A DNA stretch of 64,000 nucleotides from Hungatella sp. UBA5385 (GTDB lineage: Bacteria; Bacillota; Clostridia; Lachnospirales; Lachnospiraceae). Within the stretch, counting starts at the first letter, position 1. Each line of letters opens with the position of its first letter. The position numbers and the translations under genes are program-made. The notes under the pieces are model-generated. The model was not told the origin of the DNA. It was given only the letters and a program-made list of their open reading frames with translations, and did not search any database. Location: contig DHOR01000028.1 in the NCBI GenBank assembly GCA_002409995.1, positions 49,692-113,691 of the forward strand. Direction: 5' to 3'. Positions 3,305-27,824 of this stretch are shown here, one piece after another.

Positions 3305-3308
3305 CTGA

Positions 3309-7264: not shown

Positions 7265-7327
7265 CTAGCCATCGTTAACGGTAAACGTTTTGAAACTACT
7301 AAGGCAGGTGAAGGAGGTAAAAGTTAA

Positions 7328-8384: not shown

Positions 8385-8424
8385 TAGAGTTAAAAATAAT
8401 AACAAAAATATGGAGGGATTAGAT

Positions 8425-9597: not shown

Positions 9598-9608
9598 GGG
9601 AGGGTACA

Positions 9609-10805
9609 ATGGATAAGAATATTAATTCGGTTCACTTTGACAGGAAGAGGGAAAAGACCCCTGTGACGGTAAAACAGTTTGGATTAGCAAATGCGAAAAA
9701 AGTATATAATTTTCATCGGAGTTTTCCGGAATACAAGGAAACGCCATTGGTAAATCTTGCTAGTCTTGCTGAGAGGCTTGGGGTAGCCAGTATACATGTA
9801 AAAGACGAAAGTTATCGATTCGGATTAAATGCGTTTAAGGTGCTGGGAGGAAGTTATTGCTTAGGAACTTATATTGCAGATTGCCTCAATACAGATATTA
9901 GTGAACTTTCTTATGAAAAGATCATCAGCAGGTCAGTGAAAGAAAAACTGGGAGAGATCACCTTTGTTACAGCCACCGACGGAAATCATGGAAGAGGTAT
10001 TGCGTGGACAGCTAACCGTTTAGGCCAAAAAAGTGTTGTATATATGCCAAAAGGAAGCTCTGTGGAGAGGCTGAATAACATCAAAGCACTTGGATCAGAT
10101 GCTTCAATAACCCAGGTCAATTATGATGATACGGTCCGTTTTGCCAGCCAGAGTGCTGAAAAAAATGGCTGGGTTCTTGTACAGGATACAGCCTGGGAAG
10201 GTTATGAAGATATACCTACTAGAATAATGGAGGGATACACCACCATGGCATATGAAATAGTAGATCAGCTGGGAGAGGAAAAACCTACCCATATCTTTTT
10301 ACAGGCTGGAGTCGGTGCCATGGCAGGAGCAATTACTGGATTTTTCGCAGATTTATATGGAGCAGAGAACTGCCCCATCATAACCATTGTAGAACCCCAA
10401 AAGGCGGATTGTATATATAAAACTGCGTATGCAAATGATGGTCAGCTTCATAAGGTTGAAGGAGATATGGATACTATAATGGCAGGTCTTGCATGTGGAG
10501 AACCCTGTTCCATAGGCTGGGATATTTTGAAAAACTATGCAGATCACTTTATATCAATGCCTGATTGTGTGGCAGCAAAAGGTATGCGGATACTTGGTAA
10601 TCCATTAGGAGATGATCAGAGGATTGTTTCAGGAGAAAGCGGAGCTGCTACGTTGGGATTTGTGGCAGAAGCTTTGATGAACAAGGAGCTGTCAGACTTA
10701 AAGGAAACCATTGGTCTTTGCGAGGATTCCAGGATTCTGTGTATATCAACTGAAGGAGATACGGATAGGGATAATTATCGTAAAATCGTGTGGGATGGTT
10801 TATAA
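9609..10805 (+). CDS. Diaminopropionate ammonia-lyase-like PLP enzyme (fold type II)
   Basis: RBS is GGGAGGG. The motifs VKDESYRFGLNAFKVLGGSY (PLP-Lys) and TATDGNHGRG match the DAP ammonia-lyase (YgeX/DpaL) family pattern. Confidence 0.7.
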   Translation: MDKNINSVHFDRKREKTPVTVKQFGLANAKKVYNFHRSFPEYKETPLVNLASLAERLGVASIHVKDESYRFGLNAFKVLGGSYCLGTYIADCLNTDISELSYEKIISRSVKEKLGEITFVTATDGNHGRGIAWTANRLGQKSVVYMPKGSSVERLNNIKALGSDASITQVNYDDTVRFASQSAEKNGWVLVQDTAWEGYEDIPTRIMEGYTTMAYEIVDQLGEEKPTHIFLQAGVGAMAGAITGFFADLYGAENCPIITIVEPQKADCIYKTAYANDGQLHKVEGDMDTIMAGLACGEPCSIGWDILKNYADHFISMPDCVAAKGMRILGNPLGDDQRIVSGESGAATLGFVAEALMNKELSDLKETIGLCEDSRILCISTEGDTDRDNYRKIVWDGL

Positions 10806-10866
10806 TTAACTTTATAGTGGGTGGTTCTTTAGGAACCACCCATCAAGACAAAGTCGTTTATATTAT

Positions 10867-10918
10867 GAAGCACTGTATTTTAGTGAAATAAATATACAGT
10901 GCTTCATTTTTGCTTTTT
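10867..10918 (+). terminator. Rho-independent terminator ending the amidohydrolase/lyase operon
   Basis: GAAGCACTGTAT / ATACAGTGCTTC form a 12-bp perfect stem followed by ATTTTTGCTTTTT. A second GC-rich hairpin (GGGTGGTTCC/GGAACCACCC) lies at 10819..10844. Confidence 0.8.
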
Positions 10919-11033
10919 ACTCTGGTATAATTAAGTATATCGGAACTTTCCGACATCTCAAAATATGGAATTAAAAGCAATATAGTTTAAGTTGACCACA
11001 TTGGTCGTAGCGGTAGCTAAGAAGGGAATTGTA

Positions 11034-11447
11034 ATGGAAATAAATAATAATAAGAATCATCTATCTCATATTAGAGTCTATTTCATCATGCTTCTTTTTG
11101 CTATGTGCTTAACCATGAATGTGTTCTTTTATATTACTTATAATCCTTATGAATTATTAGATAAGACAACTGTAATTGAGACGTGGGCAATTTCAGAAAG
11201 TATCGTTGTCAATGAAGACAGTGATAATACTACCTATATTAAGGCTTCGTTTTTGAACCAAAATAATTCTTATAATGAAACTATCACGAAGAATATAAGT
11301 TCAATACTCATGACTGCAGCTATCCCCAATGGAATTAGTCTGCTTCTTTTTCTTGTTATAGTTTTTCTTTTTTTCTTTTTAACCTTATTTATATTATTGC
11401 CTGATGGATGGACATTAATTAATCAAAAGGTACGTCTGAACAATTGA
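11034..11447 (+). CDS. Hypothetical membrane protein (two predicted TM segments, Asn-rich loop)
   Basis: AAGAAGGGA lies before ATG 11034, internal to ORF 10992..11447. Hydrophobic segments are YFIMLLFAMCLTMNVFFYI and ISLLLFLVIVFLFFFLTLFILL. I recognise no family. Confidence 0.4.
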   Translation: MEINNNKNHLSHIRVYFIMLLFAMCLTMNVFFYITYNPYELLDKTTVIETWAISESIVVNEDSDNTTYIKASFLNQNNSYNETITKNISSILMTAAIPNGISLLLFLVIVFLFFFLTLFILLPDGWTLINQKVRLNN

Positions 11448-11645
11448 ATCTATTCCTTTTCAAATCATGAACACAGCATAAATATATACCATCATAAGAA
11501 TCATTTATTGTAAGTGTGCTGGTGGTTTTTAAGTCATTTTCAGAACCAAATAATGGCTTCTTTTTTGTATACAAATAAGCAGAGAGTAAAACCGTATACT
11601 ATTACAACAGTGAAGCAAAGCAGAGATTGAATTGGAGGAATATAG

Positions 11646-11855
11646 ATGAAAGAAAAGATATATAAATTATTTATAACCCTAATGGTGTGCCTGTCCTTGG
11701 GGTCAGGTCCCGTAGCCCAAAATGAAATAGTCAAGATGCTTGAAGCTCTTTCGGGAACAGGTGAGGCGCAGCTTCAAGAACTTGATGAAGAAAAAGAGTC
11801 TGAAGAAATAAAAAAGATAAATGAATTGCTAGATTATTTACAAGATATTCTATAA
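11646..11855 (+). CDS. Small secreted acidic protein, hypothetical (69 aa)
   Basis: RBS is GGAGGAATATAG-ATG. The N-terminus is signal-like (MKEKIYKLFITLMVCLSLGSGPVAQ) and is followed by a Glu/Asp/Leu-rich helical tail. A terminator follows. Confidence 0.45.
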   Translation: MKEKIYKLFITLMVCLSLGSGPVAQNEIVKMLEALSGTGEAQLQELDEEKESEEIKKINELLDYLQDIL

Positions 11856-11915
11856 TAGGGTACGGTACCTCTTAATTTATATCTTGTATAAATATCAATT
11901 TAACTACTGAATAAT

Positions 11916-11959
11916 AAGCCACCAGATATCCCCCAAATTTTCTGGTGGCTTGTTTTTTT
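11916..11959. terminator. Shared terminator between convergent genes (small ORF and RLP gene)
   Basis: AAGCCACCAGA / TCTGGTGGCTT form a stem followed by GTTTTTTT on the plus strand. The site lies 9 nt beyond the RLP stop. Confidence 0.75.
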
Positions 11960-11967
11960 ATTCATCA

Positions 11968-13239
11968 CTAATGCGCAAATACCTCCAGAGCAGCCCTCAA
12001 TTCAGGCTGCTCTTTTGCCGCCTCTTCTGAAGGAATGCCCTCTATGGCAGCCGTCACAGCTTGATACATAGCTTTCACTCCTGCAGCAGCACCCATGGGG
12101 TGTCCCTGAACAGCTCCGCCTGCAGCCAGAATAATATCAGTTCCTAAATCATCCATAAATTGTTTTACCATCCCTGGATGAACGCCTCCGCCGCAGATTG
12201 GCATAGTGGGGCGTAAATGATAGCAGGGAAGAGTTAAGTTCAGTGCAGTTTTAATATATTGCTGATTAGTCAATGGATAACCGCCATAGGGGGTATTCAT
12301 CATAACAAGGTCTGCACCTGCCATGCGGGGGAATTTTCCGACGGACAGATGGGAACCCATCCCGCTATGTGTCCCTTCATTATACATTCCAGAGGCTGCG
12401 CAATGCCCCATAACCGGAATGGTGATCTGCTCAGAAATGGCCTGAAAAGTGCTGTAACCTACAGTAGAAAAACACATCATAACAGCTTTGGCGCCTGCTT
12501 CTTCCACTTCCTTAAGAGTATCCAGTATTCTGTCAGAGGAATCTGTAATATTGCAGATGTAGATGGTTTCTTTGCCTGTTTTCTCGTAAGCAGCTTTAGC
12601 TGCCTGATTATAGGCTTTTACACGGTCTGCAGCTTTGCAGTAATCAGGATTACCCAGAAGCTCATCATCTTTAATAAAATCCACTCCTCCCAAAGCTGTT
12701 TCATAAAAGATTCTGGCTCCTGCCTCAGGAGTGAGACCTGTGCATGGTTTGATCATATTGAGGAGGAGGGGGCGGTCTTTGACTCCTGTCAGCTCTCTTA
12801 ATCCCTGAATACCGAACTTGGGTCCTTTAAAATGGTTGACATAAGATTCTGGTAACTGCAAATCCACCAGCTTTACCTGAGCGCTGGTAGAGGCGTCATT
12901 GCCAAGAAGTGTGGTAAACATCATAGGAAACTGAGGGCCGAAGTTTATGGTGGGATATGCAATCTGGATAAAATAGGTGCGCAGTCCGTCAGGAATCTGA
13001 GTGGATAACTCATAGGGAGGCGCATCCAGAATGTTGATAACCCGTCCCATGTGTTTATCCCGCATTTCATCAGTGATTCCGGGAACAGGAACCCAGGTTC
13101 CGATGGTCTGCCCCACTGCCATTGATTGCGCTTTTTTTACAACGTCAATGCTCTTATCCAGCTGGATATAATAGGTGGCAAGAGCATAATCCTGATTTTT
13201 GATATTTTCCATAAGGGAAAACAACTTGGAGTTTGTCAT
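11968..13239 (-). CDS. RuBisCO large-subunit-like protein, form IV (RLP)
   Basis: The RuBisCO large-chain catalytic-domain pattern is present: LLGND, IKPCTGL (KPK motif altered), GGVDFIKDDE, PVMGHCAASG, ICGGGVHPG and AAGGAVQGHP. The ATG lies 2 nt after the upstream TIM-family stop. Confidence 0.85.
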   Translation of the reverse strand: MTNSKLFSLMENIKNQDYALATYYIQLDKSIDVVKKAQSMAVGQTIGTWVPVPGITDEMRDKHMGRVINILDAPPYELSTQIPDGLRTYFIQIAYPTINFGPQFPMMFTTLLGNDASTSAQVKLVDLQLPESYVNHFKGPKFGIQGLRELTGVKDRPLLLNMIKPCTGLTPEAGARIFYETALGGVDFIKDDELLGNPDYCKAADRVKAYNQAAKAAYEKTGKETIYICNITDSSDRILDTLKEVEEAGAKAVMMCFSTVGYSTFQAISEQITIPVMGHCAASGMYNEGTHSGMGSHLSVGKFPRMAGADLVMMNTPYGGYPLTNQQYIKTALNLTLPCYHLRPTMPICGGGVHPGMVKQFMDDLGTDIILAAGGAVQGHPMGAAAGVKAMYQAVTAAIEGIPSEEAAKEQPELRAALEVFAH

Positions 13240-13241
13240 AG

Positions 13242-14048
13242 TCAGTTTTTTCTTCCTTTCTTCTGATGATGTAAGGGGAGAACTGAGCGTATGATTGCGT
13301 TCAGCTTATCAGCCTCCCAAGCGCTTCTGCCAATAAACAGTCCGTCAATATCAGACATCTGAATCAGCTTTTTGGCGTTTTCCGGATTAACGCTTCCTCC
13401 ATAGAGAACAGGAATATCAGTACCTGTTTCTTCGCCAAACAGCTCAATTAAAGTATCCTTAATCACTCTGTGCTTTTCGTTGGCATAATTCTCATCTGCC
13501 GGAATTCCCCTTGCTCCAATGGCCCATACAGGTTCATAGGCAATCCAGATGTTCTGTGCCTGGTTTTTTTTAATAGAATGAAGTCCGATTTTTAATTGGA
13601 TACGAAGGATTTCATCACTAATTCCATAAAGCTTTTCCTCCATTGTTTCGCCAATACAGAGAAGAGCGGTAAAACCGCTGTTTAAAGCTTTTGCTATTTT
13701 TAGCTCTTCCTCCTGATCGGTTTCGCCCATAATATGGCGGCGTTCTGAATGACCTGCCATGATCAGATCAATTCCGATTTCGTTTAGCATAACCGGGGAA
13801 ATCTCTCCGGTATACTGTCCCTCATCCTCCCAGCTCATATTCTGGGCTCCAATGAGAATTCTGCTGTCTTCAACAGTGTCTTTTGCAGCGGGCAGGGCAG
13901 TGTAGGAAGGGATGACAAAAAGCTCCATCTGGTCAGATGGAATATCTTCGGTCAAATAATTAAGGCTTTTAAGAAAACTGCATGTATCTGCAATGGTTTT
14001 ATACATCTTTGTATTGGTGCCAATATAAAGCTTATCTAATCGTTTCAT
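13242..14048 (-). CDS. Triose-phosphate isomerase family protein (TIM paralogue)
   Basis: The motifs GTNTKMY, AGHSERR, IAYEPVWAIG and YGGSV are present. RBS is GGAGG. Confidence 0.8.
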   Translation of the reverse strand: MKRLDKLYIGTNTKMYKTIADTCSFLKSLNYLTEDIPSDQMELFVIPSYTALPAAKDTVEDSRILIGAQNMSWEDEGQYTGEISPVMLNEIGIDLIMAGHSERRHIMGETDQEEELKIAKALNSGFTALLCIGETMEEKLYGISDEILRIQLKIGLHSIKKNQAQNIWIAYEPVWAIGARGIPADENYANEKHRVIKDTLIELFGEETGTDIPVLYGGSVNPENAKKLIQMSDIDGLFIGRSAWEADKLNAIIRSVLPLHHQKKGRKN

Positions 14049-14079
14049 CAGAAAACCTCCGTTTTCCAGTATAGTTTAG

Positions 14080-14547
14080 TCAGGATTCTTTCATAGTTTC
14101 AGATTCCACTTCCTTAATTGCGGAGACCTTTGGTGTAGAAGACCCGTCTTTAAATTCCAGATCCAGCCATTCTGCCAGAATCTTCTTGGCAAGCTCAATT
14201 CCGATAACCCTTTCTCCAAAGCAGATTACATTGCCATTATTGCTCAGCTTAAGACGTTCTCCTGAAAAGCTGTCGTGACAGACTCCTGCCCGTATGCCAG
14301 GAAACTTATTGGCTGTCATTGCCATGCCAAGCCCTGTTCCGCAGATGAGAACTCCTTCTTTTGTATAATTGCTGTCAATAATTCGCTGACAGGCTTTTTT
14401 TGCTATGTAAGGATAATAAACAGGGTCCTCCGGACTATTGCAGCCCATATCCTCAACTGTATAACCTTTTTCCACCATGAATTGCTTCAATGCATTCTTC
14501 ATAGGCACTGCAGCATTGTCACATCCGATTACAATTGTTTTGCTCAT
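14080..14547 (-). CDS. RpiB/LacA/LacB-family sugar-phosphate isomerase
   Basis: The start was chosen at MSKTIVIGCDNAA, downstream of AAGGAGG. The motifs ICGTGLGMAMTANK and NGNVICFGERV are typical of the family. Confidence 0.8.
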   Translation of the reverse strand: MSKTIVIGCDNAAVPMKNALKQFMVEKGYTVEDMGCNSPEDPVYYPYIAKKACQRIIDSNYTKEGVLICGTGLGMAMTANKFPGIRAGVCHDSFSGERLKLSNNGNVICFGERVIGIELAKKILAEWLDLEFKDGSSTPKVSAIKEVESETMKES

Positions 14548-14802
14548 AGATTGATTCAACCTCCTTTGATAAAACATGATTGTTGTTGATTTATCTTCAT
14601 ATTAGCATATGAAAACCCTACAATCAAGGATAAAAATAGGAAAACAAAGAAAAAATGCCTGAATTATATGGAGATCAAAAAAGAACAGAATAATAAATTG
14701 GGTAAAATGCCGGAAATAATCAATAAAAAAGGCAATACAAGCATAAAAATAGGGCAAAGTAAATAAAAACAAATAAAATCAGACAAAAAATAAGAAAAAC
14801 TA

Positions 14803-14831
14803 TTGTGAAAGAGAAAAGAATATGATACAAT
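14803..14831 (+). promoter_or_regulatory. Candidate promoter of the PTS operon (TTGTGA-17-TACAAT with TG extension)
   Basis: TTGTGA lies at 14803..14808 and TACAAT at 14826..14831, with aTGa immediately upstream. The site sits in a 320-bp AT-rich divergent intergenic region. Confidence 0.45.
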
Positions 14832-14912
14832 GTGAACATAATTTTTAGAGAAATTTAATAGTTTTTTAATGAAAGCTACAAAACAACAAAACTGGATAAG
14901 GAGGTGAAGACG

Positions 14913-15362
14913 TTGCTGAGAAAGGAATTGATTAAGCTCGATGCTGATGTTGAGAACTCTGAGGAAGCTCTTCGGATGATGGCAGAGATGTTTGTGCAGG
15001 AGGGAGCAGCAAAACCCAGCTACCCTGATGCTATTATAGCAAGAGAAGCTCAGTACCCTACGGCGCTGCCGGCGGAAGCTTTTGATATTGCAATACCTCA
15101 CACATTTGCAGAGCATGTGAATGAGCCGGCTATGGGAATTTGTGTGTTGAAGAATCCTGTGGAATTTAAACAGATGGGATCTCCGGAGATTACACTCCAC
15201 CCTCAGTTACTGTTTATGCTTGCAATTACAGATCCCAAGGATCAGATTACCTTGCTGCGGAAAATCATGAAGCTGATTCAGAATGCAGATGCATTGAAGC
15301 AGATTAAGGAAGCAGACAGTGTTGATGAAATTTATTCTATTGTAAATCCGCTTCTGTTTTAA
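14913..15362 (+). CDS. PTS EIIA component, EIIA-2 (mannitol/fructose/ascorbate-type) family
   Basis: AAGGAGG (14898..14904) lies 8 nt before TTG 14913. The track ORF begins at GTG 14904, inside the RBS. The active-site context is FDIAIPHT. Confidence 0.8.
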   Translation: MLRKELIKLDADVENSEEALRMMAEMFVQEGAAKPSYPDAIIAREAQYPTALPAEAFDIAIPHTFAEHVNEPAMGICVLKNPVEFKQMGSPEITLHPQLLFMLAITDPKDQITLLRKIMKLIQNADALKQIKEADSVDEIYSIVNPLLF

Positions 15363-15422
15363 CCAGGATTTACAATAGGAAAATATAAAATATGTTTCAT
15401 AGAGAAAGGATGGTTTTTTATT

Positions 15423-15737
15423 ATGGGAAAGAGAAAGGCAATTAAACTGTTGACAGTGTGCGGCTCCGGTATTGTTACCTCCTCCATGTTAGCCAATAAG
15501 CTGACTGACATGTTTGAGGAAGAGGGGTACGAGGTTACTGCCATGGAGGCGAATCCAAGTGAATTGGCTACTTATATAGCAAGAGAGAAGTATGATCTGG
15601 TAGCATATGCAAGTCCTATTAATGAAGAGGATTTGGCTGGAACTCCTGCACTTCCTGCAATCGGGCTTATTACGGGGCTGGGAGATGAGGAATTCTTAGA
15701 GCAGGCGCTTGAGATTTTTAAGGCAGCAGGCAAATAA
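15423..15737 (+). CDS. PTS EIIB component (galactitol/lactose-type, Cys phosphorylation site)
   Basis: The N-terminal motif KLLTVCGSGIVTSSM is present in a protein of about 100 aa. Confidence 0.8.
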   Translation: MGKRKAIKLLTVCGSGIVTSSMLANKLTDMFEEEGYEVTAMEANPSELATYIAREKYDLVAYASPINEEDLAGTPALPAIGLITGLGDEEFLEQALEIFKAAGK

Positions 15738-15765
15738 TCCACAATGAGAAAAGGGGGATTTATTA

Positions 15766-17184
15766 ATGGAAATGTTTTTTGGAGCAGTAAAGGCGTTTTT
15801 TGATACGTTCAGTGCAGTTGTGTTTGTTCCGATGATTATGTTTGTCATTAACATTGCTTTTAAAGTAAAACCCAAAAAGGCTTTTATTTCTGCCCTGTCA
15901 GCAGGTGTTGGTCTTCAGGGATTTAACCTGGTAATTGGAGCATACAGCCCGATTATTGAACCGATTATTACACGAATGGTAGAAGCCAGTGGTGTAAACC
16001 TTCCTGTATATGATGCGGGCTGGCCCAACACTTCTGTAGTGGCTTATTCCACACAGGCTGGTATGGTCTTTGTTGTAATTGCAATTTTACTTCAGGTATT
16101 TTTGTTCCTTTCCAAATACACAACCGTTTTCCAGGCTGGTGACCTTTGGAATAACTACTCTTACTTCTGCTGGGGCTCTATGCTCTATGTGCTGACAGGC
16201 AACATGTTTCTTGCTATCTGCCTGATGACAATGCAGCTGTTAATTACACTGCTTATTACAGAGGTGATTGCAAAAAGGTGGTCCACATATTATGGCTACC
16301 CCGGCTGTACCATAGCCTCGTTACATACTGCCACGGTGGCAGTGCTTGCCATTCCGTTAAACTGGCTGTTAAACAAGATGGGGCTTTATAAAATTCAGAT
16401 GGATCCTGAAGGAATGCGTAAAAAGCTGGGATTCATTGGCGAGCCTATGACGCTGGGATTAATGCTTGGTATTATTATTGGTTTTGTAGGAAATATAACA
16501 AGAATCGGCGAACTGAAGGCATGGGGAGAGATCTTAAGCTGTGGTATTGCAACTTCAGCAGTTATGTCCGTATTCCCTAAGATTTCTGCTATTTTCTCCG
16601 GAGCATTTACAGCCATTACAGAAGCTTCCAAGAAGAAGACAAAGGGCTTTAAGGGCGAGTGGTATCTGGCAGTTAATGATGCTACCGGATACGGCGAGAC
16701 AGCAACACTTGTAACAGGTCTTCTGACAATGCCTATTATTCTGCTGCTGGCTTTCGTGCTTCCTGGCAATACTACTTTACCTATGGTTGATCTGGTTGCA
16801 ATTCCTTATGTTATTCAGCCTATGGTAGCTATGAGTAACGGTAATGTTATTAAATCATTAATTGGTTCCATCATTGTATGTGTTATATTCCTGTATATCT
16901 GTTCTGCATGTGGCAGCACATTTACAGAAGTTGTACAGGTTGCAGGAGGTACCCTGGGAACAGGCGGCGCTATGATGGTTACTTCTCTTATTATTATCGG
17001 CCAGCCTATTGGTTATCTGACGTTCCTGATATTTGCCAGTCAGAACCCTATTTTAATAGGACTTCTGGTTGTGGTATATGCAGTGAGTTATGTACTGGTT
17101 CGCAAGAATAAGGAAAAAATCTATGCAGTATTAGAGCAGCAGGCTTTAAATCCAAGTGGAGCAGCTGTTGCAGAACAAGCTTAA
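15766..17184 (+). CDS. PTS EIIC component, galactitol (GatC) family
   Basis: The 472-aa polytopic protein has a GatC-like N-terminus (FFDTFSAVVFVPMIMFVINIAFKVKPKKAF) and follows the EIIA and EIIB genes. Confidence 0.8.
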   Translation: MEMFFGAVKAFFDTFSAVVFVPMIMFVINIAFKVKPKKAFISALSAGVGLQGFNLVIGAYSPIIEPIITRMVEASGVNLPVYDAGWPNTSVVAYSTQAGMVFVVIAILLQVFLFLSKYTTVFQAGDLWNNYSYFCWGSMLYVLTGNMFLAICLMTMQLLITLLITEVIAKRWSTYYGYPGCTIASLHTATVAVLAIPLNWLLNKMGLYKIQMDPEGMRKKLGFIGEPMTLGLMLGIIIGFVGNITRIGELKAWGEILSCGIATSAVMSVFPKISAIFSGAFTAITEASKKKTKGFKGEWYLAVNDATGYGETATLVTGLLTMPIILLLAFVLPGNTTLPMVDLVAIPYVIQPMVAMSNGNVIKSLIGSIIVCVIFLYICSACGSTFTEVVQVAGGTLGTGGAMMVTSLIIIGQPIGYLTFLIFASQNPILIGLLVVVYAVSYVLVRKNKEKIYAVLEQQALNPSGAAVAEQA

Positions 17185-17196
17185 AAATAGCGAATG

Positions 17197-17240
17197 AAAA
17201 CGCTGCACTGTTTAAATGGCAGTGCGGCGTTTTTATTCTT
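17197..17240 (+). terminator. Strong hairpin plus T-tract between EIIC and ptsI (terminator/attenuator)
   Basis: AAAACGCTGCACTG / CAGTGCGGCGTTTT form a 14-bp stem with one G-U pair and a loop TTTAAATGG, followed by TATTCTT. Confidence 0.65.
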
Positions 17241-17259
17241 ACAGAGGGGAATGAAGGAA

Positions 17260-18981
17260 ATGAGGATATATGGGGGAGATCCTGTATCAAAAGGTATTGC
17301 AGCAGGAAATGTTTATAAATATGTTCCTTATGAGGCTGATGTGGAGCAGAACCAGATTTCTCCTGATCAGGCGGAAGAGGAAGTAAGGAACTACAGAAAG
17401 GCAGTGGCGGGAGCGGAAGCGGAGCTGGCTTCCATGAGGGAGGCATTTTCCCGGGAGGGATCAGATCAGGGCGCTATTATTGGGGCTCATATGGAGATTT
17501 TAAATGATCCGGCACTTGAGGAAATGGTGACAGGATTTATCCGGGCTGAACTGCACAATGTAAAATGGGCCATTGACCGTTCCTTTACAAAGTTTATAAA
17601 AATGCTGAGCCGGGTGAAAGATGATATGATCCGGGAGCGGATTGCAGATATGAAGGATGTGAGAAACCGGCTATTGCGTAACTGCGATGGCGTGGAAGAG
17701 AGGAATCTGGGAGCGTTGACAAAGCCTGTCATAGTGGCTGCAAAGGATTTGTTCCCCTCTGACACAGCTTCTTTAAACAGAAACATGGTAAAGGCAATTG
17801 TTACAGAGACAGGAGGGGCAACCTCTCATACTGCTATTATTGCCAGAAGCTATGAGATTCCTGCTCTTCTGGGAGTTGCAAATGTTATGGAGCTTTTGGA
17901 AGACGGAGAGTGGATTTGTGTTGATGCCATTGATGGGATTCTTGCGGCAGATATGGACTCTGAAAAGATAGAGGAATATAGGGAAAAGGCTGAAAAGTAC
18001 CGTATAAAAACATTGGAAACAAAAAAGTATCTGAAGGTTATGCCTGTAACCTTAGATGGTGTCCCCATTGATGTTGAGTTGAATATTGGTTCTGCTTCTG
18101 AGGAGGAATTGGAGGCAGCAGCTTATACAGACGGAGTGGGTCTGTTCCGATCGGAGTTTTTGTATATGGGAAGAGACCGCCTGCCTTCCGAAGAGGAACA
18201 GACAGAAATTTACACCAGAGTGTTAAAGGCTTTTGGAAACAGACCTGTGACTCTCCGAACCTTGGATATAGGGGGAGATAAGAATCTGGATTATATGGAG
18301 CTTCCTAAGGAAGAGAATCCATTTCTGGGCAATCGGGCGCTGCGGCTTTGCTTTACCTATCCTGATATTTTAAAAACTCAGCTTCGGGCAGCGCTTCGGG
18401 CGGCAGTGGCTGGAAATCTATGGGTAATGTTTCCCATGGTGGGGAGTATGGAGGATATCAGGAAAGCCAAAGCATTGGTGAAAGAGGCACAAAGTGAACT
18501 TACTGAGGAGCAGTTTTCCTATGGAGAGATTAAAATTGGAATTATGATAGAGATTCCCTCCATTGCCTTGATTGCTGACATGGCTGTAAAAGAAGTGGAT
18601 TTTGCAAGTATCGGAACCAATGATCTCTGCCAGTACACTCTGGCTGTAGACCGGATGAATCCGTCAGTCAGCAAGTATTACCAGAAATATCATCCTGCTA
18701 TGTTTCGCCTCATCGGTCACATTGTAAAGACTTTTAATGATGCAGGAAAACCCATCTGCGTATGCGGAGAACTTGGGGGAGATGAACTTGGTGCTGCTGT
18801 ACTTATGGGGCTTGGCATGAGGAAGTTGAGCATGGGACAGGCGTCTGTTGCCCAGACGAAGAAAATGATTACGAAAATGACAATGCAGCGTGCTGAGCTA
18901 ATTGCAGAAACTGTCTGTAATCTATCTACAGAGGAAGAGATTGTTAATTATTTAACTGAAGCGCTTGCAGATATTTTATAG
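17260..18981 (+). CDS. ptsI: Phosphoenolpyruvate-protein phosphotransferase (PTS Enzyme I)
   Basis: The start was placed after the hairpin (MRIYGGDPVSKGIAAG). The phospho-His context is GGATSHTAIIARS, and the PEP-utilising C-terminal motifs GTNDL and CGELGGD are present. Confidence 0.9.
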   Translation: MRIYGGDPVSKGIAAGNVYKYVPYEADVEQNQISPDQAEEEVRNYRKAVAGAEAELASMREAFSREGSDQGAIIGAHMEILNDPALEEMVTGFIRAELHNVKWAIDRSFTKFIKMLSRVKDDMIRERIADMKDVRNRLLRNCDGVEERNLGALTKPVIVAAKDLFPSDTASLNRNMVKAIVTETGGATSHTAIIARSYEIPALLGVANVMELLEDGEWICVDAIDGILAADMDSEKIEEYREKAEKYRIKTLETKKYLKVMPVTLDGVPIDVELNIGSASEEELEAAAYTDGVGLFRSEFLYMGRDRLPSEEEQTEIYTRVLKAFGNRPVTLRTLDIGGDKNLDYMELPKEENPFLGNRALRLCFTYPDILKTQLRAALRAAVAGNLWVMFPMVGSMEDIRKAKALVKEAQSELTEEQFSYGEIKIGIMIEIPSIALIADMAVKEVDFASIGTNDLCQYTLAVDRMNPSVSKYYQKYHPAMFRLIGHIVKTFNDAGKPICVCGELGGDELGAAVLMGLGMRKLSMGQASVAQTKKMITKMTMQRAELIAETVCNLSTEEEIVNYLTEALADIL

Positions 18982-18998
18982 ATAAAAGGAGACTGAAC

Positions 18999-19271
18999 AT
19001 GGTTAAAAGAACAACGGTTATTAAAAATAAAACAGGGCTTCATGCCCGTCCTGCTTCAGATTTTGTGCAGGCAGCATCAAAATTTAAATCTAATATTTCC
19101 ATCTGCAGAGTGGGAGAGGAAGATGATGAGGTAAATGCAAAAAGTATTATATTTCTTCTGTCCTTAGGGCTGTGTCAGGGAGATGAGGCTGTAGTAAGCG
19201 CCAGCGGCGAAGATGAACAGGAGGCTGTGGATTATCTGGTTGAACTGATTGAATCCGGTTTTGGAGAATAG
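18999..19271 (+). CDS. ptsH: Phosphocarrier protein HPr
   Basis: The product is 90 aa with RBS AAAGGAGA. The His-15 context GLHARPA and the regulatory Ser context NAKSI are present. Confidence 0.9.
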   Translation: MVKRTTVIKNKTGLHARPASDFVQAASKFKSNISICRVGEEDDEVNAKSIIFLLSLGLCQGDEAVVSASGEDEQEAVDYLVELIESGFGE

Positions 19272-19287
19272 GAAAGGCTGATTGTCT

Positions 19288-19827
19288 ATGAGAATGGTGT
19301 TTAAATTTAAAATGTCAATTGATGATTATCATCATATGCTGATGTGCAGAACATTTGGAAATTCCCGGATCAGGCGTGGACTGCTGTTTATCAGCTGGGT
19401 AGTATTCACTGTACTTATTATCTGCGATCTTACTCATGTGCTGACACTTAGCCGGGTTGTTCATGTATGTGCCCTGATGGTGGCGGTGGCAGTGCCTGCA
19501 GCTTTTGTGACTATGGAAGTCAATGTATCGAAATACAAGGATGCCTATAAAGAGGGATTTAAAGCAGAACGCCAGATTATTGCAGATGAGGAAGGGCTTA
19601 CTTTCTGCAATCGTTCAACTGATGAATCAGGAAGCAACCCATGGACTGACGTGACCCGGCTGGAGGAGATGAAAAATGTATTTGTTATCCAGTTAAACCG
19701 GAGGGAGGCAGTGATTCTTCCGAAGCGGGGGATGGGAAATGACAAGAAGATAGAGATGTTTCGGGATCTGGCTAAGCAGAAGATTCCCAATCGGTTTTAT
19801 CCTTTGAAAGAAAGGGTGTTCCGTTGA
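19288..19827 (+). CDS. YcxB-like membrane protein (hypothetical)
   Basis: Two TM segments are followed by a YcxB-type C-terminal pattern (VFVIQLNRREAVILPKRGM). The family call is from memory of the motif. Confidence 0.5.
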   Translation: MRMVFKFKMSIDDYHHMLMCRTFGNSRIRRGLLFISWVVFTVLIICDLTHVLTLSRVVHVCALMVAVAVPAAFVTMEVNVSKYKDAYKEGFKAERQIIADEEGLTFCNRSTDESGSNPWTDVTRLEEMKNVFVIQLNRREAVILPKRGMGNDKKIEMFRDLAKQKIPNRFYPLKERVFR

Positions 19828-19847
19828 TGTATAAAAGCCGGAATCCA

Positions 19848-20642
19848 TTATGGATTCCAGCTTTTGTTTTCCGGCTGATCAGAGCGGGCTTCATAGATTT
19901 CCACATTGTGCTTTGCAAGGAAATCCAGCCACTGAATGCTAAGCTTGCGGTCTGTGATAATACCTGTAATATGCTCAAAGTCTGTAATATGGATAAAAGA
20001 GGTTTTGTCAAACTTGGAAAAGTCGGCTACAACATAAACCTCTTTGCTTCGTTCAATCAGAGATTGACGGACTGCTGCAACTGATTCCAGAGAATCTGTA
20101 ATTCCGTGTTCCATGGAAAGGCTGCGGCAGGACATGAAAGTCTTGTCCAGGTAATAGGTAGTCAGGCTGGCGCTGGTGCTGAGACCATGAAACGCTTTAT
20201 CTCTTGGAGTGTAATTGCCTCCAATGCAGACAAGATGGATGTTGGGAATTTCGCACAGTTCGTTGACTACCAGAAGGGAATTGGTAACAACGGTCAGACG
20301 CATATCGCTGACTGCTTTTGCTATGGCAAGGGCAGTTGTGGAGGAATCCAAAAAAATGGAGTCTCCATTGTGGATAATCTGACGGCATCGGTTGGCAATG
20401 GCTTGTTTACTTTTTATAAAGGTGGTTTCACGAAGTGAAAGATCTACATTGTTCTCTACACCATCCTGAATAAAAGCTCCGCCATAGGTTCGGATTAAAA
20501 AGCCTTCTCCCTCCATTTGCTTTAGATCTCTGCGGATGGTTTCTTCAGTTACAGAAAATAATTTTGCTAGTTCTGTAACAGTGACACTCTTTTTCTCCAG
20601 TATAAGGTCCCGGATTTCGGATTTTCGTGTAATGGCAAGCAT
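19848..20642 (-). CDS. DeoR family transcriptional regulator
   Basis: The start is at MLAITRKSEIRDLILEKKSVTVTELAKLF, preceded by GGAGA. A DeoR HTH is followed by a DeoR-C sugar-phosphate-binding domain (IFLDSSTT, VVTNS). Confidence 0.85.
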   Translation of the reverse strand: MLAITRKSEIRDLILEKKSVTVTELAKLFSVTEETIRRDLKQMEGEGFLIRTYGGAFIQDGVENNVDLSLRETTFIKSKQAIANRCRQIIHNGDSIFLDSSTTALAIAKAVSDMRLTVVTNSLLVVNELCEIPNIHLVCIGGNYTPRDKAFHGLSTSASLTTYYLDKTFMSCRSLSMEHGITDSLESVAAVRQSLIERSKEVYVVADFSKFDKTSFIHITDFEHITGIITDRKLSIQWLDFLAKHNVEIYEARSDQPENKSWNP

Positions 20643-20918
20643 GATTTGTCTCCTTTTTTTCATTTTTAACAAGGAATTTTCTTTTATTATAACATAAAGA
20701 TTTTGATTTCGATACAAGAATGTAACAGAAAACGCAAAAACTGGACAGTTAATTGAAAAAACATGGTTTTTATTCCTTGAAAGTCAAAAAAAGTTAATAA
20801 AACAACATTTCAAATCAACAAAACCAATAACATAACACATAACATTGACTTTGGTAAGGAGGTTTCTTTGGTTCATGAATATAAGAAATAAGCTAATAGA
20901 AAGTGGGGGAGAAGAATT

Positions 20919-21722
20919 ATGATGATAAAAGAAGAAAATAGTTATCTGACAGATGAGGAAGCTAAACAAGCTGTTTTAGACGTGGGAAAGCGTATGTATG
21001 ACCGGGGGTTTGTAGCTTCCAATGATGGAAATATCAGTGTAAAAACAGGACCGGAAACCATATGGGCAACACCTACCGGTGTATCAAAAGGCTTTATGAC
21101 AGAGGATATGCTGGTGAAGATGAATATGAATGGGGAGGTTTTAGAAGGAAAGATGAAGCCGTCATCTGAGATTAAAATGCACCTTCGGGTGTATAAGGAA
21201 AATCCTGATGTGCAGGCTGTCACTCATGCGCATCCTCCCATGGCTACTTGCTTTGCCATTGCAGGAAGACCGCTTGATGCAGCCATTCTGACAGAGGCAA
21301 TACTTAGCCTTGGAACGGTTCCTGTAGCAAAATATGCCACCCCAGGAACTGAGGAGGTGCCTGATTCCATTGCCCCCTTTGTAAATCATTACAATGCTGT
21401 TCTTCTGGCAAATCATGGAGCGCTTACATGGGGGCGGAATATCTATCAGGCTTACTACAGGCTGGAGTCTGTTGAATATTATGCCACGATTTTAATGTAT
21501 ACAGGCAATATTATCGGACAGCAGAATCATTTGTCCAGTGATCAGGTGGACAGACTTCTGGAGATTCGTAAGAATATGGGAATTACTGCAGGCGGAATTC
21601 CTCCTGGTATGGGAGATGGGGAAGGGATTTTTGCTTCTGGGCAGAACAGGGAGATGGGACAGAATAGAGAGGGGATCATTGAAGAGATAGTAAGGCGGGT
21701 ATTGAAGGAGCTGAATATTTAA
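20919..21722 (+). CDS. Class II aldolase/adducin-family protein (FucA/AraD/MtnB-like) with ~50-aa C-terminal extension
   Basis: RBS is GGGGGAGAAG. The motifs NDGNISV, SSEIKMHLRVY, HAHPP and LLANHGALTWG are present. The protein is 267 aa, versus about 215 aa for typical family members. Confidence 0.8.
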   Translation: MMIKEENSYLTDEEAKQAVLDVGKRMYDRGFVASNDGNISVKTGPETIWATPTGVSKGFMTEDMLVKMNMNGEVLEGKMKPSSEIKMHLRVYKENPDVQAVTHAHPPMATCFAIAGRPLDAAILTEAILSLGTVPVAKYATPGTEEVPDSIAPFVNHYNAVLLANHGALTWGRNIYQAYYRLESVEYYATILMYTGNIIGQQNHLSSDQVDRLLEIRKNMGITAGGIPPGMGDGEGIFASGQNREMGQNREGIIEEIVRRVLKELNI

Positions 21723-23181: not shown

Positions 23182-24951
23182 ATGGAACAACTAGTTACTA
23201 GATGGGGGAAAGAGATTGATAAAGACAAGGTTCTGCCGGAGTATCCCCGTCCGGGACTTGTAAGAGACAGTTATTATAATTTAAATGGTGAATGGGACTA
23301 CTGTATCAATGATTCCCCAGAGACCAATACTTATGATGGGAAAATACTTGTTCCTTTTTCTCCGGAAACATTCCTGTCCGGTGTAAACCAGATTGTAAAA
23401 CCGGAACAGTATCTTCATTATAACAAGGAGTTTTCCCTTTCGGAAGGATTTGTAAAAGACCGGGTGATACTGCATTTTGGTGCAGTAGATCAAGAGTGTA
23501 AGGTATATTTAAATGGGAAATTCCTTGGAGAGCATAAAGGGGGGTACCTGCCTTTTAACTTTGACATTACAGAAGTTCTTCAGGAGAAAAATCAGCTGAA
23601 GCTATCCGTCATTGATAAGACAGAGCATCTGCCTCATGCAAGGGGCAAACAGAAGCTTCTGAAAAAAGGGAAATATAGCTCTTTGTTTTATACCCCTCAA
23701 AGCGGGATTTGGAAAACTGTATGGCTGGAAAGTGTGGAGAATGTTTATATTCAGGATATTAAGATCACCCCAGTGTATGATGAAAGCTGTGTTAGATTTT
23801 TAATTAAATCAAATGAAAAGAATCAGAAGGTATATCTAACTGTATATGAAGAAGGAAATACTCTGAAAGAAGCTGAGGGAGAGACAGACCGTGATATTGT
23901 GGTCAAACTGGAGGATTTTAAATCCTGGTCTCCGGACAATCCATTTCTTTACAATATAAAAATCAGGCTTGGACAGGATGAGGTTACCTCTTATTTTGGA
24001 ATGCGGAAGTTGTCAACAGGCAGGGATAAGAACGGTACACTAAGATTCTTTTTAAATAATAAACCCTACTTCTTTAATGGAGTTCTGGATCAGGGTTACT
24101 GGCCGGAAAGTCTTATGACAGCTCCCAGTGATGAAGCTCTCAAATACGATATTATTAAACTGAAGGAAATGGGTTACAACACCATCAGAAAACATATTAA
24201 AATAGAACCTGAACGTTTTTACTATCACTGTGATAAGCTGGGAATGATTGTGTGGCAGGATATGCCCAATGGAGGCGGAGATTATAATATGGTTTTCGTT
24301 ACATATTTGCCTAATGGTCTTCCTTGGTTTGGCAGAAATATAAAGGATGATCACTATAAAATCTTTCGAAGAGAGGATGAGGAAGGGAAAAAACAGTATT
24401 ATAGAGATCTTGATGATATGGTTTCAACCCTTTACAACTATCCCAGCATTGCAGTTTGGGGCCCTTTTAATGAAGGCTGGGGGCAGTTTGATGCAGGAAG
24501 AGCAACTGAGGCAATCAGGAAGCTGGACGATACAAGACTGATTAATGAAGCATGCGGCTGGTATGATCAGGGAGGCGGAGATATGTACAGCATTCACAAC
24601 TATATCCGCAAACTGAAGGTAAAACCTCAAAGTGACAGGGTGGTTGCCCTGACAGAATATGGCGGTTATGCCTATCCGGTAAAGGGCCATATGGCGTGTG
24701 CCAAAGAGTTTGGCTATCAGCATTATCACTCTGTAGAGGAGCTGACCGTTAATTATAAAAGATTGTGGGAAGAGGAGATTTTCCCAAATCTTCATAAGGG
24801 ATTAAGTAGTGCCATCTATACGCAGACCAGTGATATCGAAGAAGAGGTCAATGGAGTTATGACCTATGACAGAGAAGTGGATAAGATGGATATTAAAAAG
24901 GTACAGGAGCTTAATCAAAAGCTTTATAAAATATTTGAAGAGCTTACCTAA
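23182..24951 (+). CDS. Glycoside hydrolase family 2 protein
   Basis: The N-terminus is GH2-type (LPEYPRPGLVRDSYYNLNGEWDY). A sugar-binding domain (KVYLNGKFLGEHKGGYLPF) and TIM-barrel motifs (NTIRKHIK, WQDMPNGG, NEGWGQFD) are present. Confidence 0.8.
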   Translation: MEQLVTRWGKEIDKDKVLPEYPRPGLVRDSYYNLNGEWDYCINDSPETNTYDGKILVPFSPETFLSGVNQIVKPEQYLHYNKEFSLSEGFVKDRVILHFGAVDQECKVYLNGKFLGEHKGGYLPFNFDITEVLQEKNQLKLSVIDKTEHLPHARGKQKLLKKGKYSSLFYTPQSGIWKTVWLESVENVYIQDIKITPVYDESCVRFLIKSNEKNQKVYLTVYEEGNTLKEAEGETDRDIVVKLEDFKSWSPDNPFLYNIKIRLGQDEVTSYFGMRKLSTGRDKNGTLRFFLNNKPYFFNGVLDQGYWPESLMTAPSDEALKYDIIKLKEMGYNTIRKHIKIEPERFYYHCDKLGMIVWQDMPNGGGDYNMVFVTYLPNGLPWFGRNIKDDHYKIFRREDEEGKKQYYRDLDDMVSTLYNYPSIAVWGPFNEGWGQFDAGRATEAIRKLDDTRLINEACGWYDQGGGDMYSIHNYIRKLKVKPQSDRVVALTEYGGYAYPVKGHMACAKEFGYQHYHSVEELTVNYKRLWEEEIFPNLHKGLSSAIYTQTSDIEEEVNGVMTYDREVDKMDIKKVQELNQKLYKIFEELT

Positions 24952-26293: not shown

Positions 26294-26350
26294 AACGATA
26301 TTAATGTCATATGGAACAATTATAATGCACATAATTTGTTACCAGAAACA

Positions 26351-26379
26351 TTGCAAAAACATTGTGTGTATTATACAAT
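26351..26379 (+). promoter_or_regulatory. Candidate promoter of gntP-glycerate kinase operon (TTGCAA-17-TACAAT)
   Basis: TTGCAA lies at 26351..26356 and TACAAT at 26374..26379. The -35 region is overlapped by the direct repeat AAACATTG x2 (26346..26353 and 26357..26364). Confidence 0.5.
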
Positions 26380-27810: not shown

Positions 27811-27824
27811 GGAGGGAGGTTTCC

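Follow-up and report, generated by a model that had tools for sequence, protein, structure and literature searches.

A RuBisCO-like protein clade with a distinctive active site, encoded beside tetrulose-phosphate-type isomerases and a Gat-family phosphotransferase system in Hungatella: a candidate route of ketotetrose catabolism

A 64,000-nt stretch of the genome of Hungatella sp. UBA5385 (contig DHOR01000028.1, positions 49,692 to 113,691; hereafter the window) carries, between its positions 11968 and 21722, the gene of a RuBisCO-like protein (RLP) together with those of two sugar-phosphate isomerases, a phosphotransferase system (PTS) of the galactitol (Gat) family with its own Enzyme I (EI) and HPr, a DeoR-family regulator and a class II aldolase-family protein (Table 1). 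The cluster would be complete in itself for the catabolism of a small neutral sugar, the likeliest being a ketotetrose (D- or L-erythrulose), with the RLP replacing EryC and erythrose-4-phosphate as the end product, a reading to which we give nearly, though not quite, an even chance. With somewhat less confidence it is proposed that the clade to which the RLP belongs may act as a ketotetrose-1-phosphate 3-epimerase/isomerase that uses the enolisation half-reaction of RuBisCO only, which would make it a non-homologous replacement of EryC and its pathway, a natural erythrulose-monophosphate route in gut anaerobes, the first PTS-fed one to contain an RLP. The gene content, the family assignments, the active-site pattern of the RLP, the LerI-type motifs of its neighbour and the conserved linkage of these genes are direct observations.

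The protein is a member of the RuBisCO large-subunit superfamily, with matches to the catalytic and the N-terminal domain and with the carbamylatable lysine and the Mg2+ ligands in place; K190, D192 and E193, which correspond to RuBisCO K201, D203 and E204, are invariant in its clade. A column-by-column map of the active site over 83 sequences, given here in RuBisCO numbering, finds that the clade has kept T65, W66, N123, K175, K201, D203, E204, H294, G381 and G403/G404, and that it has replaced K177 by Cys, R295 by Y, C, S, A, F, M or H, H327 by M or L, and both K334 and S379 by Gly, the window RLP having C166, C280, M313, G320 and G350 at these positions. Judged from this alignment, the clade keeps the enolisation machinery of RuBisCO and the P1 phosphate site, and has lost the second anion site and the loop-6 lysine. 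The pattern of retained and lost residues points to a ketose with a single phosphate beside the carbonyl, and the losses argue against carboxylation and against a carboxylate substrate of the OiaX type. An earlier reading of this DNA from its letters alone (the sequence-only reading) had proposed an enolisation-type step on a ketose phosphate, and the residue map suits such a step on a monophosphate. RuBisCO itself makes a C3 epimer, xylulose-1,5-bisphosphate, through misprotonation of the enediol, and the proposed epimerase chemistry is therefore plausible. A bona fide RuBisCO of forms I-III was considered and rejected, as the five carboxylase positions are lost and the score on the form III model is below its cut-off (244 bits against 497).

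The best-scoring characterised relatives of the RLP, in models as in structures, are the methionine-salvage enzymes of the MtnW/YkrW clade from Bacillus and Geobacillus. Its nearest solved structures all belong to that clade (2oek, 4nas, 3fk4 and 2zvi), the annotation of the source reads 2,3-diketo-5-methylthiopentyl-1-phosphate (DK-MTP-1-P) enolase, and a gene of the class II aldolase family, which is that of MtnB in methionine salvage, lies nearby. K177, R295, H327 and K334 are lost in both groups, and both bind a ketose-type 1-phosphate, as far as this is predicted for the RLP. It is nevertheless scarcely credible that the RLP is MtnW, and the identity may be regarded as effectively refuted. 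The protein falls short of both MtnW models (NF007095, 335.5 bits against a cut-off of 409; TIGR03332, 295 against 513.6), and where the four solved structures have 'GK' it has 'GN'. This is the position of MtnW Lys98 (RuBisCO N123), which Imker in 2007 is said to have identified as the catalytic base of the G. kaustophilus enzyme; it is Asn114 in the window RLP and Asn, as in RuBisCO, in all 37 genome-scan members of the clade that were aligned. Identity is 48-72% to members of its own clade, against 33-35% to MtnW (34%) and to relatives of OiaX. In a neighbour-joining tree, whose references lacked DeepYkr, Photo and bona fide OiaX/OiaT sequences, the MtnW references form a separate clade with a bootstrap of 100%, and the window clade has as its nearest neighbours an Oscillospiraceae pair and a Chloroflexota group, each of which is also associated with TIM and RpiB genes. 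The families of mtnK, mtnA, mtnX and mtnD are absent from the roughly 40 window open reading frames (ORFs) scanned against Pfam, the gene neighbourhoods of other clade members likewise yielded no mtn gene, and the hosts are anaerobic, when the downstream MtnD step needs O2. The expectation that the RLP lies outside the MtnW clade, with no salvage partners in the window, has thus held.

A homologue search returned 1812 proteins at E<=1e-30, and the 120 matches listed are all at least 59% identical to the window RLP; the motifs GND, IKPC, KDDE and NTPYGG are present in 114 of these 120. Clade proteins are called 'RuBisCO large subunit C-terminal-like domain-containing protein' at NCBI and DK-MTP-1-P enolase at JGI, whilst the public names of the window genes are DK-MTP-1-P enolase for the RLP, triosephosphate isomerase for the TIM-family protein and L-fuculose-phosphate aldolase for the aldolase. 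The first of these labels is contradicted and the second is probably wrong. No curated family and no searchable paper assigns a function to the clade, whose pathway the sequence-only reading had offered as a candidate undescribed one, and literature searches turned up no relevant account of an RLP tied to a PTS, to erythrulose or to erythritol.

The gene that ends 2 nt before the ATG of the RLP (TIM gene to 13242, RLP from 13239), a spacing already seen in the sequence-only reading, encodes a paralogue of triosephosphate isomerase (TPI) whose best solved relative is PDB 11ef, 'L-erythrulose-1-phosphate isomerase' (also 11eg and 13gn), at 2.8e-55. It has the catalytic residues of the TIM family together with the loop-6 and loop-8 motifs of LerI. 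In PDB alignments that set a single solved LerI against four solved TPIs, the motif after loop 6 and that of loop 8 are WAIGTG(K/R)xA and DGxLVGGASL in the TPIs, WDIGENGIPA and DGLFIGRSAW in LerI, and WAIGARGIPA and DGLFIGRSAW in the window protein, which passes one TPI model narrowly (TIGR00419, 135.8 bits against 130.6), misses another (NF000722, 281 against 293) and has the GGASL motif replaced. The loop-8 'GR' that stands for the 'GG' of TPI occurs in 30 of 30 TIM genes linked to the RLP clade and its sister groups, even in those of Actinomycetota and Chloroflexota that are about 30% identical to the window protein. It had been suggested that the TIM and RpiB paralogues mark tetrulose-phosphate isomerisation, and for the TIM the derived motifs common to it and LerI agree with this. 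An apparent new protein in one related locus ('u199' in L086) proved to be a truncated TIM. In Pullulanibacillus sp. KACC 23026 the two enzymes are one protein (P0052, 697 aa), in which a LerI-type TIM (1-268) is joined in frame to an RLP (270-690); it is the only such fusion among the 120 closest RLP family members listed. The tight coupling of the two genes and this fusion imply that the RLP acts directly before or directly after the LerI-type TIM, and the order previously put forward, in which the isomerases precede the RLP and an aldolase follows it, is therefore unlikely; the aldolase looks like a separate branch. The third gene of the trio encodes an RpiB that passes TIGR01120 (rpiB, 143.6 bits against 138.65) and NF004051; it is a candidate D-erythrulose-4-phosphate or ribose-5-phosphate isomerase.

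A parallel to this set of enzymes exists in the erythritol pathway of Brucella, where EryC is the D-erythrulose-1-phosphate 3-epimerase and acts with EryH/LerI (EC 5.3.1.33) and EryI/DerI (EC 5.3.1.34); the tetritol pathway of M. smegmatis also uses LerI and DerI. In both Brucella and the window a TIM and an RpiB paralogue adjoin a third isomerase-type enzyme, the TIM of the window has the motifs of the solved LerI, and the end product proposed here, erythrose-4-phosphate, is the same. The likeness is one of functional analogy only as regards the third enzyme, which is an RLP here and an AP_endonuc_2/xylose-isomerase-like EryC there. Entry also differs, being by a Gat-family PTS that has an EI and an HPr of its own rather than by an ABC transporter and a kinase, and the window system has a FucA-like aldolase attached and belongs to anaerobic Bacillota.

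The parallel extends to other members of the clade. In all, 42 loci were assembled by a genome-collection scan, contig look-ups and a metagenome scan with the EIIC, spanning Bacillota and Actinomycetota; neighbours were counted within 10 kb of the RLP from crude gene calls (longest ORF and tblastn), with several of the contigs short. A LerI-type TIM is found in 25 of the 42, RpiB in 22, both together in 19, a class II aldolase-family gene in 18 and a DeoR regulator in 19. Some phosphorylating device is present in 37 of the 42, be it a Gat-type PTS (9), an FGGY kinase (16) or a UPF0261 kinase (13), a family established as an ATP-dependent kinase only in 2025 (PMC12624787). Five types of context can be told apart. 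Type E is the PTS type, and type C, which occurs in Actinomycetota and in the Chloroflexota sister group, joins an FGGY kinase to RLP, TIM and RpiB. In type D the RLP is adjoined by a glycerol-3-phosphate-oxidase-like FAD dehydrogenase trio (L006, L008, L026, L034 and L040), and three of these loci (L026, L034 and L040) also have a XylB-like FGGY kinase, which measures 516-528 aa in its complete copies. A reading of these FGGY, DAO/BFD, Pyr_redox_2 and DUF1667 genes as a glycerol operon was rejected, since the kinases are XylB-like and score 141 bits against a GlpK cut-off of 590. Brucella EryA is of similar size, at 520 aa, and has 'xylulose kinase' proteins as its nearest matches (PMC12542623). 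By analogy, then, type D loci with their XylB-like kinase (for EryA) and GlpD/GlpO-like FAD dehydrogenase (for EryB) appear to mirror eryA-eryB-eryC, with the RLP in the place of EryC; the AP_endonuc_2 domain of the EryC family did not reach two members among 148 unlabelled neighbour proteins.

The two remaining types have other partners. Type A consists of an ABC transporter, an MBL hydrolase, UPF0261, an aldolase, a GntR regulator and the RLP, with or without RpiB/TIM and URO-D, and the array ABC transporter-MBL hydrolase-UPF0261-(URO-D)-class II aldolase-GntR-RLP recurs in Lachnospiraceae and Oscillospiraceae (L007, L010, L013, L014, L019, L020, L045, L048, L049 and L058), where its substrate may be a plant-derived sugar or sugar acid. 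Type B comprises RLP, Amidohydro_2, a PEP-hydrolase-like protein, UPF0261, MBL, RpiB, TIM and a zinc-dependent alcohol dehydrogenase (Zn-ADH). In L009, L012, L018 and L023 the RLP is followed by Amidohydro_2, the PEP-hydrolase-like protein with UPF0261, an MBL-fold protein and DUF1097, and then by both RpiB and TIM in L009, by RpiB in L023 and by TIM in L012. The PEP-hydrolase-like protein and UPF0261 are the two halves of plant Tm-1, and the L009-type array could offer a way into the function of UPF0261/PF09370, a widespread pair.

Such neighbours bear on the possibility that the RLP, like OiaX, decarboxylates a beta-keto-acid phosphate; it would then make L-erythrulose-1-phosphate for LerI and DerI from an acid sugar or lactone imported by the PTS. 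Carter et al. in 2018 reportedly found that OiaX of the D-apiose pathway yields L-erythrulose-1-phosphate, which then passes to LerI and DerI, and the triad of RLP, LerI and DerI is to that extent not without precedent; the enzymes of the apiose pathway are the only RLPs known to us to act upstream of these two isomerases. Lactonase-like genes, GntR/FCD regulators, a 3-hydroxyacyl-CoA-dehydrogenase-type enzyme and UPF0261 kinases occur in many clade loci, acid-sugar-like neighbours characterise types A and B and L085, and the aldolase-family protein of the window scores nearly as well on OtnC (123 bits) as on FucA (126). The decarboxylase is nonetheless improbable. The OiaX model has a cut-off of 700 bits, of which the RLP reaches only 207, and the RLP has lost R295, H327, K334 and S379, which would hold the second anionic group in OiaX relatives; an ascription to OiaX itself was rejected on these two grounds. 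Among 21 OiaX-related RLPs, R295, H327 and K334 are kept in 21 and S379 in 19, ten representatives from the same scan scoring 418-526 bits on the OiaX model and none of the relatives compared reaching the 700 bits of a bona fide OiaX. PTS-type loci are without a lactonase and most are without a dehydrogenase, the FGGY and FAD-dehydrogenase contexts would yield no beta-keto acid from a polyol, and the EIIC matches Gat models and not UlaA. The RLPs of the apiose pathways receive secondary mention in PMC6302742 and PMC12994016. The D-apionate enzymes OiaX (decarboxylase) and OiaT (transcarboxylase/hydrolase) resemble the window protein in being RLPs embedded in sugar catabolism, although OiaX-related proteins are only about 33% identical to it, their loci, where fetched, have no adjacent TIM or RpiB, and the window has no ApnO or OiaK genes.

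The likelier ketotetrose reading draws further on the PTS, which is divergent from the isomerase genes in the window and accompanies the RLP elsewhere. The closest of these loci are two metagenome contigs with ptsI and ptsH present (L090, from human gut, and L091; RLP 81-82% identical), Clostridium sp. AL.422 (L084, 78%, without ptsI) and a further metagenome contig (L086, 75%). Erysipelotrichaceae and Solobacterium metagenome-assembled genomes follow (L004 and L022, 70% and 57%), along with Caproicibacter fermentans, which has the full set with the FAD dehydrogenase trio directly after the RLP (L008, 65%), and Oceanobacillus with the order aldolase-EIIABC-RLP-DeoR (L029, 52%). PtsI is present in four of the nine PTS-linked loci. 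The recurrence of the arrangement in genomes and metagenomes that are independent of one another shows that it did not come about by chance. No dehydrogenase was seen near the RLP in the window, L004, L022, L084 or L086, and the absence of one near most of the PTS-linked loci examined suggests that the imported compound needs no redox step. The sequence-only reading had allowed for a polyol or a ketose, and of the two a ketose fits the window better; a tetritol is possible as substrate if a dehydrogenase is encoded elsewhere. A second, independent linkage of an RLP to a PTS is found in L038 (about 2800-11200), with the order PtsI-EIIA-HPr-EIIC-EIIB-split transketolase-Zn-ADH-RLP, which resembles the transketolase branch of apiose catabolism; its RLP is of a different clade, 44% identical, and keeps K334 and S379.

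The EIIC is of the Gat family by PF03611 and, to judge from its score, not an orthologue of GatC (219 bits against a cut-off of 542 on the galactitol model TIGR00827). The best NCBIfam match of the EIIA is galactitol IIA (75 bits against 139), and the EIIB gives 23 bits against 95 on the Gat model. An ascorbate-type (UlaA) PTS was considered, as PF03611 spans both families, and rejected, no Ula model being matched and the PTS-type loci having no lactonase. The phospho-relay residues are intact (His15 and Ser46 of HPr, Cys13 of EIIB, 'IPH' of EIIA and 'TSH' of PtsI). GatABC galactitol operons and the D-arabitol PTS operons of Listeria are alike in joining EIIA-2, EIIB and an EIIC-GAT to a DeoR-type regulator and catabolic genes; the window differs from them in its scores far below the cut-offs for GatA, GatB and GatC, in having no polyol-phosphate dehydrogenase or tagatose-bisphosphate aldolase, and in its own ptsI, ptsH and YcxB-like genes. 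The YcxB-like protein has two predicted transmembrane helices in a hydropathy profile, and its gene is kept after ptsH in L004, L022, L084, L086 and L090-L092. It closes the PTS operon in eight loci or more and may encode a PTS accessory protein that has gone unrecognised.

EIIC relatives were examined at 60-93% identity. Those in L096, L097 and L102 (about 7300-12200), which are 61-65% identical, lie in loci of the form DeoR|aldolase-EIIA-EIIB-EIIC, and RLP, TIM and RpiB are absent within 10 kb in all three. Because of these loci, the PTS, aldolase and DeoR are to be seen as a general module, to which one branch has added the RLP-TIM-RpiB cassette. The RLP had been described as wired to the PTS: the linkage is indeed conserved, in nine loci, though the tie is not exclusive, as relatives of the PTS and aldolase occur without an RLP. 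L102 also has a second class II aldolase-family gene annotated after the EIIC, and a second Gat-type PTS beside a relative of an ORF cluster inferred as class II FBP-aldolase. One further candidate for an EIIC locus without an RLP, L089, was rejected, as it breaks inside the EIIB (8576) and its upstream genes are unrelated; it matches L090, at 99.75%, only from mid-EIIB onward, and is probably an assembly chimera or a rearrangement within the PTS operon.

The aldolase accompanies this PTS family even in loci without an RLP, and the DeoR|aldolase pair is kept in L006, L008, L084, L086, L090-L092, L096, L097 and L102. The protein is below all NCBIfam cut-offs (FucA 126 bits against 264, OtnC 123 against 250, MtnB 88 against 137); its best solved relative is FucA 4c24, and the zinc-binding histidines and the SSE motif with the catalytic Glu73 are conserved in the alignment. 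It is possible, though unlikely, that the PTS supplies a C5 or C6 ketose-1-phosphate and that the RLP works on it as a 3-epimerase or as a 1,3-isomerase like the R. rubrum RLP, with TIM and RpiB there to boost triose- and pentose-phosphate isomerisation. The product would be a stereoisomer that the FucA-like aldolase cleaves to dihydroxyacetone phosphate (DHAP) and glycolaldehyde or glyceraldehyde, or else a pentulose-5-phosphate. The constancy of the aldolase with this PTS family, RLP or not, speaks for this, as do the aldolase and RLP pair at the core of ABC/MBL/UPF0261-type loci and the scores of RpiB above the RpiB equivalog cut-offs and of the TIM on TIGR00419. There is also precedent for the pairing in R. 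rubrum and R. palustris, where a class II aldolase shares one ketose-1-phosphate, a pentulose-1-phosphate, with the DeepYkr RLP (PMC5893883). That RLP, the 5-methylthioribulose-1-phosphate 1,3-isomerase, and its partner Ald2 are like the window pair, as proposed here, in branching from one ketose-1-phosphate, and the RLP in moving a carbonyl through enediol intermediates. It is unlike in being distant (3qfw, which we take to be R. palustris RLP1, scores only 114 bits), in its other substrate class and cupin methylsulfurylase partner, and in the lack of TIM and RpiB. The C5/C6 alternative also has to contend with a TIM that has LerI-type loop-6 and loop-8 motifs and not the 'GGASL' gripper of TPI, with LerI as its best solved relative; the translational coupling of TIM and RLP and their fusion imply consecutive steps, not housekeeping support, and the FGGY and FAD-dehydrogenase contexts mirror the erythritol pathway. 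Of the C4-C6 range previously suggested, it is thus C4 that is favoured, with erythrulose phosphates leading to erythrose-4-phosphate, and not the C5/C6 part.

From this evidence we infer the substrate, the reaction of the RLP, the order of the steps and the role of the aldolase as follows. Each type of context would deliver a small sugar in phosphorylated form. The Gat-family PTS, served by its own EI and HPr, would import the sugar and phosphorylate it to a ketose-1-phosphate, erythrulose-1-phosphate. The RLP would hold this monophosphate in its retained P1 site, and the carbamylated Lys-Mg2+ centre with K175, N123 and H294 would abstract the C3 proton, as in the first partial reaction of RuBisCO. 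Reprotonation of the enediolate would interconvert D- and L-erythrulose-1-phosphate, which is the reaction of EryC (EC 5.1.3.38). The translationally coupled LerI-type TIM would then convert L-erythrulose-1-phosphate to D-erythrulose-4-phosphate, and RpiB, in a DerI-like role, would convert the latter to D-erythrose-4-phosphate for the pentose-phosphate pathway. The FucA-like aldolase may act on the same ketose-1-phosphate pool, as a side branch to DHAP and an aldehyde, and for this too the RLP and aldolase of R. rubrum and R. palustris are a precedent (PMC5893883). The DeoR is the presumed regulator of the cluster. L008 has a polyol-phosphate dehydrogenase, as L006 probably does, and its presence suggests entry of a tetritol through this type of PTS.

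An engineered precedent for such a sequence exists in the erythrulose-monophosphate (EuMP) module, in which FucA or RhaD, EryC, LerI and DerI act in sequence on erythrulose-1-phosphate, with FucA and RhaD interconverting D-erythrulose-1-phosphate with DHAP and formaldehyde (PMC10733421). If the RLP stands for EryC, the enzyme logic of the window matches the four enzymes one to one, with the FucA-like aldolase, the epimerase candidate, the LerI-type TIM and RpiB. It is conceivable, though very improbable, that the aldolase is synthetic here also, making D-erythrulose-1-phosphate from DHAP and formaldehyde for conversion by RLP, TIM and RpiB to erythrose-4-phosphate, as a natural counterpart of EuMP that would scavenge formaldehyde or supply erythrose-4-phosphate. 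The class II aldolase-family gene in 18 of the 42 clade loci would agree with this. EuMP is synthetic and anabolic, serving formaldehyde assimilation, whereas the window system is natural, PTS-fed and presumably catabolic: an importer and a sugar-type repressor at its core are typical of catabolism, no formaldehyde source is encoded, and the aldolase is found with the PTS even where RLP, TIM and RpiB are absent. The remaining probability lies with reactions beyond those named here.

Several points weigh against the catabolic ketotetrose route. The 37 genome-derived members of the clade are monophyletic in the neighbour-joining tree with a weak bootstrap of 46%. The TIM scores almost equally to LerI (191 bits) and to T. 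maritima TPI (188), so that the case for the LerI type rests on the motifs, and RpiB, while passing the generic RpiB models, reaches 134.5 of the 240 bits that the Rhizobiales DerI model requires. Many clade loci are acid-sugar-like, with a lactonase, MBL, a GntR/FCD regulator, a 3-hydroxyacyl-CoA-dehydrogenase-type enzyme or URO-D, and in such contexts one would rather expect a decarboxylation. It is the aldolase and not the RLP that constantly accompanies this PTS family, and the dehydrogenase of L008, and probably L006, makes a polyol substrate possible. Free erythrulose is a rare nutrient, and cleavage of erythrulose-1-phosphate would release toxic formaldehyde. An epimerase would, moreover, be superfluous if the kinase or PTS made L-erythrulose-1-phosphate directly.

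The layout of the locus itself is largely as it had been described. An ORF map and family scans find the minus-strand RpiB, TIM and RLP genes intact, and likewise the divergent EIIA-2, EIIB, Gat-type EIIC, ptsI and ptsH. A DeoR regulator and a class II aldolase are present after ptsH, as had been stated, although the YcxB-like ORF had been overlooked and deoR lies on the minus strand, converging on the PTS operon and diverging from the aldolase gene. Independent gene calls on an identical contig imply a TTG start at 14913 for the EIIA (149 aa) and make 17260 the likely start of PtsI (573 aa). The region between the divergent operons presumably holds the promoters of both, and the hairpin after the PTS operon looks like a terminator from its stem and tail, although scans for promoters and terminators gave matches not above the count in shuffled sequence. 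When six related loci were searched for a DeoR operator common to both divergent intergenic regions, only AT-rich low-complexity words emerged; the 9-mer AAAACTGGA is common to both intergenic regions of the window, not above chance. An Rfam scan of the cluster found no regulatory RNA.

Table 1. Features of the cluster in window coordinates, with the family evidence for each.
Feature	Position	Strand	Evidence
RLP, 423 aa, form IV clade without characterised member	11968-13239	minus	PF00016 2.8e-47, PF02788 1.3e-07
TIM-family isomerase, LerI type, 268 aa	13242-14048	minus	TIM family 2.8e-72
RpiB/LacAB-family sugar-phosphate isomerase, 155 aa	14080-14547	minus	PF02502 4.8e-47
AT-rich divergent intergenic region between isomerase operon and PTS operon	14548-14912		
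PTS EIIA (EIIA-2; Gat-Fru-Mtl type)	14904/14913-15362	plus	PF00359 2.9e-34
PTS EIIB (Lac/Gat type, Cys13)	15423-15737	plus	PF02302 4.6e-10
PTS EIIC, Gat family, 472 aa	15766-17184	plus	PF03611 2e-56
Enzyme I (PtsI)	17194/17260-18981	plus	TIGR01417 580.7 bits against cut-off 341.7
HPr (His15, Ser46)	18999-19271	plus	PF00381 1.2e-29; TIGR01003 95.5 bits against cut-off 47.9
YcxB-like membrane ORF, 181 aa, final gene of PTS operon	19282-19827	plus	PF14317 3.3e-08
Hairpin between convergent PTS operon and deoR	19840-19858		8-bp stem, then T-rich tail
DeoR-family regulator (HTH_DeoR and DeoRC)	19848-20642	minus	PF00455 3.2e-47, PF08220 2.8e-15
FucA-like class II aldolase-family protein, 267 aa	20919-21722	plus	PF00596 1.6e-51

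The surroundings of the cluster vary between strains. A locus with an identical RLP protein, L003 (1-11868), is collinear with the window over 11646-14538 only, and the place of the PALP, M20 and symporter genes downstream of the RLP is taken there by glycosyltransferase and dTDP-sugar genes of a polysaccharide-synthesis cluster; window position ~11646, some 320 nt beyond the RLP stop, is thus a strain-level breakpoint. Further on, the Na:Ala symporter gene of the window (7350-8384) is 5'-truncated by a deletion of about 350 nt with its junction at ~7391-7393, the ORF being of 344 aa against 469 aa in L001, an assembly otherwise 99.9% identical. On the other side lie a GH2 gene (23182-24951), a CdaR regulator, GntP permease and DUF4147/MOFRL (glycerate-kinase-like) gene (25142-29057), and a histidine kinase/AraC two-component system with an ABC sugar transporter and another GH2 glycosidase (29230-37949).

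It is already known that a TIM and RpiB pair can serve as tetrulose-phosphate isomerases and, reportedly, that an RLP acts upstream of LerI and DerI in apiose catabolism. What is apparently new is an RLP clade with a distinctive active site for which no curated or published function was found, the likely role of such an RLP, suggested by its residues and neighbours, as a non-homologous replacement of EryC, and its coupling to a Gat-family PTS with dedicated EI and HPr. Only a small number of RLP activities are known, and the evolution of RuBisCO chemistry has become clearer with every one that was added. A 3-epimerase, which we propose tentatively and at rather less than even confidence, would add to the enolase, 1,3-isomerase, decarboxylase, transcarboxylase/hydrolase and oxygenase functions of the family, and an RLP that halts after enolisation and reprotonation of a four-carbon, RuBP-like monophosphate would, if true, be a minimal version of the first step of RuBisCO. 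Many of the 'DK-MTP-1-P enolase' and 'triosephosphate isomerase' labels in Clostridia, Erysipelotrichaceae and Actinomycetota would then need re-annotation, and the natural epimerase and the LerI/DerI variants could be parts for a synthetic EuMP cycle of formaldehyde assimilation. For the bacteria themselves it would mean a tetrulose or tetritol route in the gut and rumen, for which possible sources are the sweetener erythritol and the L-erythrulose that arises from the breakdown of vitamin C.

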